The notes beneath the pieces are model-generated. The model searched no databases, was not told the origin of the DNA, and was given only the letters and a program-made list of their open reading frames with translations. DNA of 64,000 nucleotides from assembly GCA_965227065.1 (NCBI GenBank), contig CBDDFN010000010.1, forward strand, positions 9,098 to 73,097. The letters run 5' to 3'. Made by a program: the position numbers and the translations under genes. This DNA comes from Alphaproteobacteria bacterium. Lineage in GTDB: Bacteria > Pseudomonadota > Alphaproteobacteria > SPJN01. Positions 28,010-41,463 of this stretch are shown here, piece by piece; position 1 is the first letter of the stretch; every line of letters begins with the position of its first letter.

Positions 28010-28085
28010 GGGGCCGTAGCTCAGTTGGGAGAGCGCAGCAATCGCACTGCTGAGGTCAGGGGTTCGACTCCCCTCGGCTCCACCA
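28010..28085 (+). tRNA. tRNA-Ala (anticodon CGC), CCA encoded
   Basis: GGGGCCGTAGCTCAGTTGGGAGAGCGCAGCAATCGCACTGCTGAGGTCAGGGGTTCGACTCCCCTCGGCTCCACCA. G3:U70 Ala identity pair. Anticodon loop ATCGCAC. Confidence 0.9.
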
Positions 28086-28344
28086 ATTTTCTTCGAAAAT
28101 TGTTTTCGCCTTCGGTCTGTCCGTTGGCACAAAGTTCGACAGAGTTCGAACTTTGCGCGGGGGGGCCCCACCAATTTTCTTCGAAAATTGTTTTCGCCTT
28201 CGGTCTGTCCGATGGCGCAAAGTTCGATCGGGTTCGACCTTCGTGCGGGGGGCTCCACCACTATCCGCTATGCGGATATTGGGGCCACCCCGGTTTTCCG
28301 ATCGTCCAAATTCTCAATCGAATTTGTCCGCAGGGGCTCCACCA
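28086..28344 (+). repeat. Tandem array (2 intact + 1 degenerate unit) of a ~87-88-bp element, each ending in a tRNA 3'-end-like GG(G/C)(C/T)CCACCA
   Basis: Unit 1 (28086-28173) = ATTTTCTTCGAAAATTGTTTTCGCCTTCGGTCTGTCCGTTGGCACAAAGTTCGACAGAGTTCGAACTTTGCGCGGGGGGGCCCCACCA. Unit 2 (28174-28260) is near-identical. Unit 3 (28261-28344) has a diverged interior but ends GGGGCTCCACCA. Confidence 0.85.
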
Positions 28345-28379
28345 ATTTGCGCTTGGCACGCTCGACGTTGCAAGAATTA

Positions 28380-28952
28380 TCAGGCCGGACGCACCGCGCT
28401 TTGTAGCTCACCGGGATGACCCGGTGGCAATCCGGGGTCTTGCATCGGGCCAAGCCCGACCAGCCCATCAACCCAGACGCGAAAATCCTCGGAGTAATTG
28501 TTGCGGGTTAGTTGCCACCACGAGATCGCGCCGGGCCGGGCCATGATGGTCATCAGGCTCGCTGCGGACGATTGCCAGATTTCCTTGGTCTGGTGACCGG
28601 CCTTGTAATGAATGTACCCGGTCTGTGCGATTGACAACATGCCGCCCAAAAGGATGGAGACCCGAACCAGTTCCGATGCATTAAGCGTGCTCAAATCTCC
28701 GCCACCCTTCATCAGCAAATCCGCCAGGTCTTTGTTGCCGGCAACTTCAAGGGTGAAAGATTGATGCATCTGCGCACCGCTGATCTCAAGCGCGAGCGTG
28801 TTGGACAGGCGATTGAGGCGCAACTGCTGCGTGTTCTGGTTGAGCTGGATGCCAACAAACACCAGCGAACCAACCACAATTACCGCCGCGACAATCTCGG
28901 CAATATTGCTTATCGTCTCCAGCATCCCAGTCTCCCCTGCCGAATTTCGCAA
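28380..28952 (-). CDS. Hypothetical membrane protein
   Basis: N-terminal TM (IAEIVAAVIVVGSLVFVGIQL). No motif recognised. C-terminal ~30 aa are low complexity, so the 3' boundary is uncertain. Confidence 0.4.
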   Translation of the reverse strand: MRNSAGETGMLETISNIAEIVAAVIVVGSLVFVGIQLNQNTQQLRLNRLSNTLALEISGAQMHQSFTLEVAGNKDLADLLMKGGGDLSTLNASELVRVSILLGGMLSIAQTGYIHYKAGHQTKEIWQSSAASLMTIMARPGAISWWQLTRNNYSEDFRVWVDGLVGLGPMQDPGLPPGHPGELQSAVRPA

Positions 28953-29010
28953 GGATATTTCATTTAGTGTTGAGATGAAAGCAGGATTCGGAGCGACCGT
29001 CCCGGTTGCG

Positions 29011-29565
29011 CTACCACCGCATCATGGGCATGGGATTGAGCGGATGCCTGGGGACCCAGCCGCCGGCAATCCGCACCAGCGCCTTGTGGAAACCCTGATT
29101 GGGATAAAGCGCCCGGATGGCTTTAAGATCGGCGCCCCTGGCGCCAAAGCGTACCAAACCGATACTGACATCGGAATAATCGGCCCGGCGGAACCACTCC
29201 CCCCAGTTGGGCGCATCACCGCGCGCGGGGACCGCCGTCAACTTGTGATGCTCCATCACCATATCGGCGACAGCCTCGGACCATTTGGTTAGCCCGCGCG
29301 CCACCAATTCCTGCTGGGCATGGGCGTTGGACGGCTCAAGATAATCAAAGGTGCCATCAAGCCAGATGCCCGCATCATGATAGACACAGGCAATGGCAAG
29401 CGCGGTCAGTTCCCCATCGCCGGGTTGGTAGTCAGGCGCCAGGCTGCGCTGGTGCACCAGGGTGGTTTCATAGACCCGGCGGCAATGATTGCCATAGCCG
29501 CCCAAGTCCCGGCCGATCGCCTCTTTGTGGCGGTCCAGCAATTCGGTAATCAGATCCTGGCTCAT
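29011..29565 (-). CDS. HD-domain-like protein (putative metal-dependent phosphohydrolase)
   Basis: 184 aa with H...HD...HH...D spacing (NHCRRVYE; CVYHDAGIW; MEHHKL; RRADYSD) reminiscent of the HD superfamily. Confidence 0.45.
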   Translation of the reverse strand: MSQDLITELLDRHKEAIGRDLGGYGNHCRRVYETTLVHQRSLAPDYQPGDGELTALAIACVYHDAGIWLDGTFDYLEPSNAHAQQELVARGLTKWSEAVADMVMEHHKLTAVPARGDAPNWGEWFRRADYSDVSIGLVRFGARGADLKAIRALYPNQGFHKALVRIAGGWVPRHPLNPMPMMRW

Positions 29566-39069: not shown

Positions 39070-39088
39070 CAAAAGGAAGTCTCTGAGT

Positions 39089-41113
39089 ATGTGCGGCATT
39101 GCCGGTATTTTTCACCGCGACCCTCAACAGCCCCTCGACCGCCAATTGCTCGCCAATATGGCGGCGATCCAGTATCATCGCGGCCCCGACGAATTCGGCG
39201 TGCGCTGCATGGATGATCGCGGCATTGGCTTTTCCCATGCCCGCCTGTCGATCATTGATCTGGACGAAACCCGGGCGCGTCAGCCTTTTGAAAGCAAGGA
39301 TGGCCGGCTGCTGCTTGCCCATAATGGCGAATTCTATGACTTCAAGCGCATCCGCGCTGATCTGACCAGCCGGGGCGACCGCTTCCAGTCAAAGTCGGAT
39401 TCTGAAATCATTCTGGGGCTTTATCCCCGGCTGGGGCTTGAAAAAACCCTGATCAATCTGCGCGGCGAGTTTGCCGTGGCGCTGTATGACAAGGACGAGG
39501 ACGCGCTGTTTCTGGTGCGCGACCGCTTCGGCGTCAAGCCGCTTTACTGGACGATGACCGAAGACGGGCTGGTGTTCGGTTCTGAAATCAAGGTGCTGTT
39601 TGCGCATCCCAAAGTGGAGCGGCGTCTTCATGAAGAAGGCGTGCTGCACCAGCTCATTCAGGTGATGGTGCCCGGCACCACCGCCTTTGAAGGGGTGCAT
39701 CAGATCAAGCCGGGCCATGTGCTGCGCGTCAAACGCTCGGGCACCAGCTTCCAGATCGATGATCTGCAATATTGGGATTATGAGTTCCCCCATGCTGATG
39801 CCCATCACGATCCGCGCAGTGAAGCGGACAATATCGAGCTTGTCCGCGAAAAGCTGCTGGAGGCGGTGACGCTGCGCCTTGAGGCAGACGTGCCGGTCGG
39901 CTGTTATCTGTCGGGCGGGATCGATAGCTGTTCAATCCTGGGACTGTCTGCCGCCGTCCGGCAAGACCCGGTGAAGGCGTTCACCATCGGCTTTGATGAC
40001 GCCGATTATGACGAAACCCCGGTCGCAACCGAGATGGCTGAGGCCACCGGCGCGGATCAGGAGGTGCTGCGGCTTAACGCCAATCATCTCTACGGGCATT
40101 TTGAAAAGACGCTGTGGCATACAGAGCGGACCATCTACAACACGCTCGCGGTCGCCAAATATCTCATGAGCCAGCGGGTCAATGAGCTTGGCTACAAGGT
40201 TGTGCTGACCGGTGAGGGCTCTGATGAGCTGTTTGCAGGCTATCCCGCCTTCCGGCGCGATCTGTTCCTGCACGGCCTGCCTGATTTGGACGCTGATGAG
40301 CGCAAGACCTGGGAATCCATGCTGGGCGAGTCAAATGCCTTGTTCAAAGGCGCCATGCTGGCCGAGGATGAGCTTGATGACCCCCATCTGTCGGCCAAGA
40401 TTGGTTTCACGCCCAGCTGTTTGCAGCCCTGGCTGGCCTGCACGCACACGGCACGCGGGCTCATGCAGGCCGATTTGCGGGAGCGGTTGACCCGTTACCA
40501 TCCCGGCGAGGCGATTGCAGATACGTTCGACACGACAGCCCTGTCGGGGCGGCATCCGCTCGACCGGGCTCAATATGTCTGGTCGAAAACCATGCTTGAG
40601 GGTCAGATCCTGACCTGGGGCGGGGACCGGGTTGATATGGCCAATTCGATGGAGGCGCGGCCCGCCTTCCTTGATCATCATCTGGCTGCAGCCGCTGTCA
40701 CCATCCCGCCCATTCACCGCATCAAGGAGCGTAAGGAAAAATATGTCCTGCGCGAAGCGATGAAAGGGCTTTTGCCCAAAGTGCTCTATGAGCGTGAGAA
40801 ATTCGCCTTCATGGCCCCGCCCGCGCACACCGATCAGCAAAAATGGGCATCCATGATGGTGCTCGCTGATGAGCATCTGTCAGACGAGGCGGTCACAGCG
40901 GCGGGCGTGCTTGATCACAAGGCGGTTCACGACATGCTCGAAGAAGCGGTGGCCGATGAAACCAGCCGGGCACGTAAAGTCCAGCTTGATGCGGTGATCA
41001 ACCATGCGCTTGGCGTGCAGATCCTGCACAAGCATTTTATCGCCCAGGATGTTCCCGCCCTGGCCGCCCAGCGCGCCAAGGAACTGGGCTGGAGCGCCGA
41101 GCGCGCCGCTTAG
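39089..41113 (+). CDS. Asparagine synthetase B-family glutamine-hydrolysing amidotransferase (long, 674-aa form)
   Basis: N-terminal nucleophile MCGIAGIF. PP-loop SGGIDSC. An extended ~120-aa C-terminal region beyond canonical AsnB. Confidence 0.85.
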   Translation: MCGIAGIFHRDPQQPLDRQLLANMAAIQYHRGPDEFGVRCMDDRGIGFSHARLSIIDLDETRARQPFESKDGRLLLAHNGEFYDFKRIRADLTSRGDRFQSKSDSEIILGLYPRLGLEKTLINLRGEFAVALYDKDEDALFLVRDRFGVKPLYWTMTEDGLVFGSEIKVLFAHPKVERRLHEEGVLHQLIQVMVPGTTAFEGVHQIKPGHVLRVKRSGTSFQIDDLQYWDYEFPHADAHHDPRSEADNIELVREKLLEAVTLRLEADVPVGCYLSGGIDSCSILGLSAAVRQDPVKAFTIGFDDADYDETPVATEMAEATGADQEVLRLNANHLYGHFEKTLWHTERTIYNTLAVAKYLMSQRVNELGYKVVLTGEGSDELFAGYPAFRRDLFLHGLPDLDADERKTWESMLGESNALFKGAMLAEDELDDPHLSAKIGFTPSCLQPWLACTHTARGLMQADLRERLTRYHPGEAIADTFDTTALSGRHPLDRAQYVWSKTMLEGQILTWGGDRVDMANSMEARPAFLDHHLAAAAVTIPPIHRIKERKEKYVLREAMKGLLPKVLYEREKFAFMAPPAHTDQQKWASMMVLADEHLSDEAVTAAGVLDHKAVHDMLEEAVADETSRARKVQLDAVINHALGVQILHKHFIAQDVPALAAQRAKELGWSAERAA

Positions 41114-41170
41114 CAACGTATTTGGGGTGGCGTGCCGCCCGAAGCGCGCAAGTGGCTCTTGGGTGACGGG

Positions 41171-41387
41171 TGCCAACGGACAGACTGAAGGCGAAAACAA
41201 TTTTCGAAGAAAATTGGTGGAGCCCCCGCACGAAGGTCGAACCCGGTCGAACCTTGTGCCAACGGACAAACCGAAGGTGAAAACAATTTTCGAAGAAAAT
41301 TGGTGGAGCCCCCCGCGCAAAGTTCGAACTCTGTCGAACTTTGTGCCAACGGACAAACCGAAGGCGAAAACAATTTTCGAAGAAAAT
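41171..41387 (-). repeat. Mirror-image tandem array (2 intact + 1 partial unit) of the same ~87-bp element as 28086-28344, abutting the second tRNA-Ala
   Basis: The + strand reads TGGTGGAGCCCCCCGCGCAAAGTTCGAACTCTGTCGAACTTTGTGCCAACGGACAAACCGAAGGCGAAAACAATTTTCGAAGAAAAT, which is the reverse complement of unit 1 at 28086 with only a few mismatches. Confidence 0.85.
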
Positions 41388-41463
41388 TGGTGGAGCCGAG
41401 GGGAGTCGAACCCCTGACCTCTACAATGCCATTGTAGCGCTCTCCCAACTGAGCTACGGCCCC
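41388..41463 (-). tRNA. tRNA-Ala (anticodon GGC), CCA encoded
   Basis: The reverse complement is GGGGCCGTAGCTCAGTTGGGAGAGCGCTACAATGGCATTGTAGAGGTCAGGGGTTCGACTCCCCTCGGCTCCACCA, identical to the 28010 tRNA except in the anticodon arm. Confidence 0.9.

Follow-up and report, generated by a model that had tools for sequence, protein, structure and literature searches.

Must a block of accessory genes be foreign if it is framed by tRNA genes, adjoined by repeated tRNA ends, and absent from the same site in related genomes? This question is raised by an interval between two tRNA-Ala genes, 13.3 kb apart, in the alphaproteobacterial contig CBDDFN010000010.1 (assembly GCA_965227065.1), of which a stretch of 64 kb, hereafter termed the window, was analyzed; feature coordinates are window positions. 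The original prediction described the interval as a horizontally acquired osmoadaptation island in partial decay. With moderate confidence, we favor another reading, namely that the locus is a lineage-specific, integrase-less plasticity slot between convergent tRNA-Ala isoacceptor genes, filled with native operons, and not one foreign island. The interval, whose gene content was called with Pfam and NCBIfam, comprises a 190-aa open reading frame (ORF; segment S0, 28380..28952, minus strand), ancestral resident genes (S1, 29008..30533, minus strand), a glycine-betaine operon (S2, 30665..34548, plus strand), and a carbamoyl/amidotransferase operon (S3, 34572..41113, plus strand). The previously proposed GSMT-type betaine synthesis, BCCT transporter, MarR regulator, SSF symporter, and ATCase-like, AsnB-like, and M20 carbamoylase proteins were all confirmed by these family searches.

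tRNA-Ala Genes and Trailer Arrays

Exactly two tRNA genes are present in the window, as ARAGORN and Rfam concur: tRNA-Ala(CGC) at 28010-28085 on the plus strand (Rfam tRNA model, 64.3 bits) and tRNA-Ala(GGC) at 41388-41463 on the minus strand (65.4 bits). The two genes are convergent and identical outside the anticodon arm, in agreement with the inverted, near-identical pair that had been proposed. Behind each of them follow tandem units of 86-88 nt in the same orientation as the tRNA, here called trailer units. The element of approximately 87 bp predicted on the inner side of each tRNA was recovered by Tandem Repeats Finder with a period of 88 in the left array (28076-28260, 2.1 copies, score 298) and 87 in the right array (41170-41397, 2.6 copies, score 386). 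The last 10 bases of tRNA-Ala, GGCTCCACCA, form the start of every trailer unit, and the first unit thus overlaps the tRNA gene. Exact copies of GGCTCCACCA are located at 28076, 28251, 28335, 41215, 41301, and 41388, and a copy with one mismatch at 28164; with up to one mismatch allowed, the whole window contains 19 matches vs. 5.6 expected.

The left array (28076-28359, plus strand) consists of two type A units, u1 (28076-28163) and u2 (28164-28250), the divergent type B unit u3 (28251-28334, or 28251-28344 as otherwise delimited), and a further tRNA-end copy with a 25-nt stub (28335-28359) that closes the array, all of them homologous by alignment and by nhmmer (E-values from 1e-9 to 1e-20). 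The right array (41170-41397, minus strand) includes the full units r1 (41311-41397) and r2 (41225-41310) and the partial, 55-nt unit r3 (41170-41224), which open with GGCTCCACCA on the minus strand. The units pair by position across the arrays, u1 and r1 being identical at 86 of 87 positions and u2 and r2 at 79 of 86; adjacent units inside one array are approximately 90% alike. A repeat search of the window yielded inverted arms of 171 nt with 92% identity, and the tRNA genes and arrays together constitute inverted arms of approximately 250 bp.

One more exact GGCTCCACCA is located on the minus strand at 37213-37222, within the SSF symporter gene, and was judged to be a chance match; a 24-nt stretch beside it is 75% similar to part of a unit, in the wrong relative orientation. 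The sequence ...TTGGCAC at the end of both arrays was considered as a specific insertion site and dropped, as the break-point is different in L003 and L001, the relatives introduced below.

Comparison with Related Genomes

The source organism is a member of a poorly sampled lineage of alphaproteobacteria. A search with aroA retrieved two relatives above 80% identity (L001, 84%; L003, 82%), the next best being 68%. On both flanks, the window is collinear with the contigs of these relatives (L001/L002 and L003/L004) at 78-83% nucleotide identity. The left anchor is an arylsulfotransferase-like gene (26479..27840, minus strand, PF14269) that is syntenic and shares 86 and 77% amino acid identity with its counterparts in L001 and L003, respectively (approximately 80% at the nucleotide level for the flank); the right anchor is the Pfam-assigned FYDLN_acid gene (41619..42008, minus strand), followed by aroA, cmk, rpsA, sppA, and ihfB, with 81-83% nucleotide identity to L001/L003. 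The expected core housekeeping flanks were found on the right side (FYDLN_acid-aroA-cmk-rpsA) but not on the left, where the genes are sulfotransferase/arylsulfotransferase-like.

The convergent pair of tRNA-Ala(CGC) on the plus strand and tRNA-Ala(GGC) on the minus strand is present in both close relatives, and tRNA-Ala(CGC) occupies the same site in L001, L003, and L004. The distance between the two genes varies from 1.6 kb in L003 and 4.3 kb in L001 to 13.3 kb in the window, and the genes in between differ in each case: a 184-aa gene, a PRC-barrel gene, and ChaB in L003, and a 280-aa gene, a 184-aa gene, and an IlvD/Edd-family dehydratase in L001. By these alignments, the site is a true variable slot. 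The prediction that the island would be absent from relatives held for the 10.5 kb with the S2 and S3 operons, which are missing from the tRNA-Ala site in both of them, but not for the region of 29.0-30.5 kb. In blastn comparisons, positions 5429-6895 of L001 correspond to window positions 30474->29008 (76% identity), and positions 7749-8305 of L003 correspond to 29564->29008, in both cases in inverted orientation. This region is thus ancestral DNA that appears flipped in the window relative to both relatives. It encodes a 184-aa, weakly HD-like protein (29011-29565, minus strand) common to the window, L001, and L003, and a 293-aa membrane protein (29652-30533, minus strand) shared with L001, where it corresponds to the 280-aa gene; identities of the S1 proteins to those of the relatives are 83, 74, and 79%. 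Likewise, the expectation that tRNA-Ala would be followed directly by the FYDLN_acid/aroA block in relatives was realized in part, since both tRNA genes are kept there and enclose a small set of resident genes. Within the lineage, the tRNA pair and its tRNA-end repeats are ancestral features and not the ends of one inserted element.

Distant relatives (aroA identity of 64-65%) keep the order tRNA-Ala(GGC)-FYDLN-aroA, with neither a second tRNA nor repeats. In L045, a more distant alphaproteobacterium, tRNA-Ala(CGC) is located directly beside yggT/DUF167. Taken together, these arrangements indicate that the convergent pair is a lineage-specific juxtaposition. The window and the two close relatives contain a four-gene sulfotransferase/arylsulfotransferase cluster between yggT/DUF167 and tRNA-Ala(CGC) (compared for window positions 24354-27840 and L045 positions 6370-7629); the cluster is missing in L045, which suggests that the upstream side of tRNA-Ala(CGC) also gained genes.

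Origin and Composition of the Cargo

Both operons of the slot were found at other loci in the relatives. The four-gene S2 block occurs elsewhere in contigs from the L001 samples (L129/L130, 79.4% nucleotide identity) and from the L003 sample (L131, 73.8%), each time in a different neighborhood. The S3 operon is intact in L128 (5374-12025, 78-82% nucleotide identity), where a glycosyltransferase borders it on one side and an ABC transporter/thiolase on the other; L128 shares its sample of origin with the L003-type contig L004 and has similar coverage. The divergence of both operons from these copies equals that of the flanking core genes (74-82% nucleotide identity), and we therefore regard the cargo as native to the lineage. 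No repeats, att-like sequences (resembling phage or island attachment sites), or tRNA-end copies were found at the block junctions, and the gap between S2 and S3 is an almost seamless 23 bp.

Composition points the same way. Codon-usage z-scores of the island genes range from -0.6 to 1.6 (4.1 for BCCT), within the range of the flanks (up to 5.9), so that codon usage is flat across the interval boundaries, contrary to the predicted shift. AT-rich genes had been taken as a foreign mark; the underlying dip in GC content is real but modest (0.52-0.56 at 29.5-32.5 kb vs. 0.595 for the whole window). The AT-richer genes, encoding GSMT and the 293-aa membrane protein, are equally AT-rich in the relatives, wherever they are placed, and the dip at 29.65-32.5 kb recurs with the same genes at the relatives' other loci, which makes it intrinsic to these genes.

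Nor was machinery for site-specific movement detected. Pfam searches covered ORFs chosen throughout the 64 kb and all ORFs of the island; none matched integrase, recombinase, or transposase families, so that neither the integrase expected in the flanks nor a dedicated invertase beside the inverted arms was found, and no such family was seen at the relatives' loci either. Direct repeats occur only as the mini-arrays beside each tRNA, and none bracket the cargo, which is enclosed by inverted copies of the tRNA end.

These data bear on the classical explanation, in which a single foreign osmoadaptation element, inserted site-specifically at a tRNA-Ala 3' end, is undergoing decay. It would account for a location next to tRNA 3' ends with repeated tRNA-end copies, for absence from the site in two relatives, for frameshifts concentrated in the cargo (described below), and for the modest GC dip. 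Opposed to it are the inverted rather than direct copies around the cargo, the lack of mobility families among the ORFs scanned, the flat codon usage, the gene-intrinsic nature of the dip, the presence of both operons in relatives at core-like divergence, the ancestral part of the interval, and the failure to find the trailer module in phage or plasmid collections or in viral contigs. We consider the foreign-island view largely refuted and improbable, and the original reading of the interval was upheld only in part.

A neighborhood shared by L128 and L129 (PNPOx-PNP_UDP-radical SAM/DUF3463-GT21-...-thiolase) was also compared. The L003-type genome holds the AsnB block and the ABC transporter there; in the L001-type genome, GT21 is followed directly by thiolase, and the betaine operon is located a few genes further on. 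Operon-sized blocks thus appear to move often in this lineage.

Nature and Distribution of the Trailer Units

The trailer units of the window, L001, L003, and L045 fall into a single alignment and constitute one family. Each unit is composed of a leader, a long central palindrome, and a G-run running into GGCTCCACCA; in the window units, the palindrome is CAAAGTTCGA...TCGAACTTTG. It is kept across genomes, with 80.7% of cells paired and three pairs changed on both sides, and its covariation was above that of 498 of 500 shuffles, a result that, with ten related sequences, is suggestive only. Left and right trailers match at 95% in the window (over 173/175 columns) and at 96% in L001 (over 199/200), and the units measure approximately 87, 200, and 80 nt in the window, L001, and L003, respectively. 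Such likeness within a genome, combined with different architectures between genomes, argues for concerted evolution by gene conversion between the inverted arms.

According to an nhmmer profile, trailer modules sit only behind tRNA-Ala genes in approximately 1.15 Mb of sequence compared, with no copy away from these genes and none at the relatives' operon loci; this absence ruled out the modules as ferries of the operons. In L045, tRNA-Ala(CGC) is followed by 2.2 kb of cargo with two genes (a MarR-GNAT fusion and a CAAX protease) and then by a module with a tRNA-end copy. By analogy with integrative elements, the module would take exactly the position of a displaced attachment site, in a classic island layout. 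Nearly all matches of a loose module pattern on genome contigs were due to chance, that in L045 being the only real one among the matches listed. A tighter pattern on metagenomes, whose gap limits could not catch the L001 type, returned four chance matches, and the scan of viral contigs also returned four, all within coding regions. The match between the trailer and the phage and plasmid collections was limited to the tRNA part, so that derivation of the trailer from a phage or plasmid was rejected, and no element cognate to the units was found in the viral, phage, and plasmid collections.

Judged as an accretion array of decayed integrative elements retaining att sites (cis-mobilizable elements, CIMEs), the trailers are gene-less tandem units bounded by tRNA-end copies, with GGCTCCACCA as a putative att core only. 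On this analogy, decayed attachment-site relics are what the units most resemble, and we take this as the best reading; a tRNA-derived pseudogene origin or an RNA-level function is possible.

The first of these possibilities holds that the units arose as tandem copies of the tRNA-Ala gene that have since decayed, i.e., pseudo-tRNAs produced by unequal recombination, and that the hotspot reflects mere homologous recombination between repeats. The 5' strand of u3 (GGGGCC...GGCUCC-ACCA) corresponds to the tRNA-Ala acceptor stem, including G3:U70, pairs with the tRNA-end copy, and folds with z = -3.3; the L001 and L003 units have a homologous strand, GGA-CCC..., which likewise pairs with the tRNA end. 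Furthermore, the central hairpin holds GTTCGA, a T-loop motif, and the unit length is near that of a tRNA plus spacer. However, ARAGORN finds no tRNA or pseudo-tRNA in the units in tRNA orientation by default or even at 80% thresholds, the Rfam tRNA models match the two real genes only, and D-arm or anticodon-arm remnants are lacking. The L045 module, located 2.2 kb from its tRNA at the far end of the cargo, also behaves more like a displaced attachment site. Both pseudo-tRNA and tmRNA were rejected as identities of the units on the ARAGORN and Rfam results, a weak tmRNA_permuted match (26.6 bits vs. a gathering score of 47) being due to the T-arm of the real tRNA. Overall, we regard an origin from tRNA gene copies as unlikely. 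A perfect 7-bp hairpin, TATCCGC-TAT-GCGGATA, is located at 28261-28279, between u2 and the acceptor-like GGGGCC of u3, and does not occur in the other units.

The second possibility is that the units are functional RNAs co-transcribed with tRNA-Ala, either CCA-ending tRNA-like hairpins or processing/termination signals, kept by selection besides gene conversion. In favor of this are the orientation of the units, the lack of a canonical terminator between them and the tRNA, the hairpin kept with covariation across diverged genomes, and an ACCA-AUUUU junction that recurs at each unit. The E. coli tyrT gene, with its downstream 178-bp tandem repeats, offers an analogous arrangement, which yields rtT RNA (Rfam RtT family). 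Here, as at tyrT, tandem units stand directly behind a tRNA gene, each contains the tRNA 3'-terminal bases, and co-transcription is probable; unlike tyrT, the unit length and the tRNA are different, an inverted pair frames variable genes, and there is no sequence or Rfam match (none to RtT at the gathering threshold or at E<=10 on 27990-28420). Within the trailers, no canonical terminators or promoters were found beyond chance. Other features are hard to reconcile with selected RNAs: copy number and unit architecture vary between close relatives, the acceptor-like stem is limited to u3 and the L001/L003 units and lost in type A units, several units fold weakly (z-scores from -0.4 to -2.6), more distant relatives with the same tRNA use an ordinary terminator in place of units, and the covariation comes from just the ten related sequences. 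We therefore find this explanation quite improbable. A bolder and very improbable proposal would merge both roles: the units would be expressed as CCA-ending RNAs mimicking the tRNA-Ala acceptor stem (u3 keeps the G3:U70 pair read by the alanyl-tRNA synthetase AlaRS), co-transcribed with both isoacceptors, and would serve as DNA substrates of recombination that capture and flip native stress operons without a dedicated integrase.

Frameshifts and Assembly Reliability

Frameshifts were called by comparison with the relatives' proteins. Those proposed earlier for two genes are present in the sequence, but their number is four, in three genes: BCCT (~32536), M20 (~34892), and the ATCase-like gene (~38083 and ~38800, i.e., 38798-38803). 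All four are +1 single-base insertions in runs of 2-4 G or C. They fall within the approximately 10.4 kb of cargo, vs. none in 42 flank and ancestral genes compared alike; if frameshifts were evenly spread, the calculated chance of finding all four in the cargo is approximately 0.006. Contig L141, which comes independently from Logan and shares 98.8% identity with window positions 28575-32832, reads GG in place of the GGG of the window at 32536, leaving the start of BCCT intact. Consequently, the frameshifts are either very recent or consensus errors confined to the interval, and the claim of partly decaying DNA is upheld by the clustering in the cargo and weakened by the possibility of such errors. 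A second difference in G-run length between the window and L141 is intergenic (30747).

The interval, or its orientation, could also be an assembly artefact, with the contig mis-joined or mis-oriented at the inverted tRNA/array repeats. Perfect inverted repeats of 65 nt (the longest) and 47 nt are present, contigs L002 and L004 of the relatives break off at the tRNA or the array, the sequence appears to be a metagenome-type assembly, and homopolymer-type frameshifts are confined to the interval. Conversely, the ancestral S1 genes inside it imply that the interval belongs at this locus, L141 confirms the adjacency and relative orientation of S0, S1, and S2, and both arms join correctly syntenic flanks. 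In view of this, an artefact of assembly is rather improbable.

Proposed Origin of the Slot

In the scenario that we favor for this integrase-less slot, the trailer units would be decayed remnants of former site-specific insertions at the 3' end of tRNA-Ala, each relic being a tRNA-end copy preceded by a conserved, palindrome-rich segment. Unequal crossing-over would have amplified the units, and gene conversion between the ~250-bp inverted arms would keep the two sides alike. Homologous recombination between the same arms would also permit the enclosed segment to invert, and this would account for the flipped orientation of the resident genes. The betaine and carbamoyl/amidotransferase operons may have entered the slot by within-lineage recombination at the inner edge of an array, through intragenomic relocation, duplication, or exchange with close relatives, and both may now be accumulating frameshifts. 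The putative function of this cargo is osmolyte synthesis and uptake.

Several points weigh against this scenario. No integrase was seen at the loci of any of the four genomes, so the attachment-relic origin is something that we infer; the repeated tRNA end is short (10-14 nt), and the 5' strand complementary to it in some units is no less compatible with an origin from tRNA or at the RNA level. The S1/S2 and S2/S3 junctions show no recombination scar or repeat, and the 64-kb window fits relocation, duplication, and exchange with a relative alike. Some or all of the four +1 frameshifts in G/C runs may be consensus errors, and the orientation of the 13-kb segment may be an assembly choice, given the 65-nt perfect repeat and the broken contigs of the relatives; the proposed inversion depends on one assembly.

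Inverted copies of rRNA genes, tRNA genes, and insertion sequences (ISs) are known to mediate chromosomal inversion and gene conversion by homologous recombination. The present locus resembles such systems in its ~250-bp arms with 92-99% identity, its flipped resident genes, and the concerted evolution of its arms; it differs in that the arms are short and that the inversion, derived from one assembly, could be an assembly choice. Among tRNA-linked islands, tandem accretion of CIMEs is exemplified by the ICESt1-related elements of Streptococcus thermophilus (PMC5704250). The tRNA 3'-end site, the tandem, gene-less short units with tRNA-end direct repeats, and the content variable among relatives are common to these islands and our locus, in contrast to the absence of mobility families among the ORFs scanned, the unit size of only approximately 87 nt, and a compositionally native cargo that lies between oppositely oriented arrays and is found at other loci in relatives. 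In the ssrA islands of Dehalococcoides, several direct repeats of the gene 3' end are each immediately preceded by a conserved, element-derived motif that does not align with the gene itself, and a high-plasticity region is located downstream; these islands are kilobases long and carry a serine-recombinase integration module (PMC3146451). Direct repeats of a tRNA-type 3' end, a conserved motif upstream of each repeat, and a plasticity region recur here, whereas no scanned ORF matches a recombinase family, and the units are head-to-tail mini-units at two convergent tRNA genes.

As this locus illustrates, three textbook hallmarks of islands, namely borders formed by tRNA genes, repeats of the tRNA end, and lack of the segment in relatives, need neither foreign DNA nor an integrase to arise. 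In the reading favored here, the lineage's own operons were reshuffled into a hotspot framed by convergent tRNA genes, which is a caution for automated island callers; the locus would also show, in compact natural form, concerted evolution of tRNA-linked repeats and a probable inversion between them.

Genes of the Interval

The S0 ORF has no Pfam/NCBIfam match and native-like codon usage; it is specific to the window and the near-identical contig L141, with no homolog at the relatives' loci.

The betaine operon starts with GSMT (30802-31653, plus strand), which scored 484.5 bits with the equivalog model NF051855 (cut-off 350). The adjoining SDMT-like methyltransferase gene (31646-32485, plus strand) overlaps GSMT, likewise in the relatives; its best model, NF041675, gave 337.6 bits, below the cut-off of 550. 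The BCCT transporter gene (32485-34033, plus strand) and marR (34027-34521, minus strand, by Pfam/NCBIfam) complete the block. Synthesis of glycine betaine by stepwise methylation of glycine through GSMT and SDMT has been described, e.g., in Halorhodospira halochloris (PMC7824335). The operon agrees with this pathway in having a GSMT equivalog followed by SDMT-like, BCCT, and MarR genes in a four-gene order kept in relatives, and departs from it in the sub-cut-off SDMT-like score and the +1 frameshift of BCCT in the assembly. A conserved AT-rich motif, CCTTTTTATTTCGTRTACA.TR.ATTATAAG, is located upstream of GSMT in three genomes (window 30665-30700, L129 9865-9900, and L131 9845-9880); the motif marks the left edge of the mobile block and probably serves as promoter and MarR operator of the betaine operon.

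The S3 operon comprises the M20 carbamoylase (34572-35862, minus strand), a 186-aa ORF (35903-36463), the SSF symporter (36460-37887), a 40-aa ORF (37881-38003), the ATCase-like gene (37997-39069), and the AsnB-like gene (39089-41113), the last five on the plus strand. The ATCase-like protein falls short of the pyrB equivalog cut-offs and bears an N-terminal extension of approximately 44 amino acids. An S3-type cluster also occurs in Thioalkalivibrio-type gammaproteobacterial contigs (L136, 2076-11038, and L137), so that the set of M20 carbamoylase, small ORF, SSF symporter, 40-aa ORF, ATCase-like, and AsnB-like genes is kept from the alphaproteobacterial lineage to these gammaproteobacteria; its context there includes MarR, an isochorismatase-family amidase, and an MscS channel, adjoining sucrose synthase. 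The conserved combination of ATCase-like, AsnB-like, carbamoylase, and symporter genes is a candidate pathway for an N-carbamoyl amino-acid amide osmolyte. No paper on genes of carbamoyl-glutamine-amide synthesis turned up in a literature search, and exact-sequence look-ups of AsnB, cmk, and the 100% aroA cluster representative returned nothing on record.

Short in-frame tandem repeats within coding regions are located at 41657-41761, 10294-10368, and 15595-15674. One of them forms the acidic, D/E-rich tail of the FYDLN_acid gene, and the others are 15-nt repeats in two ORFs.

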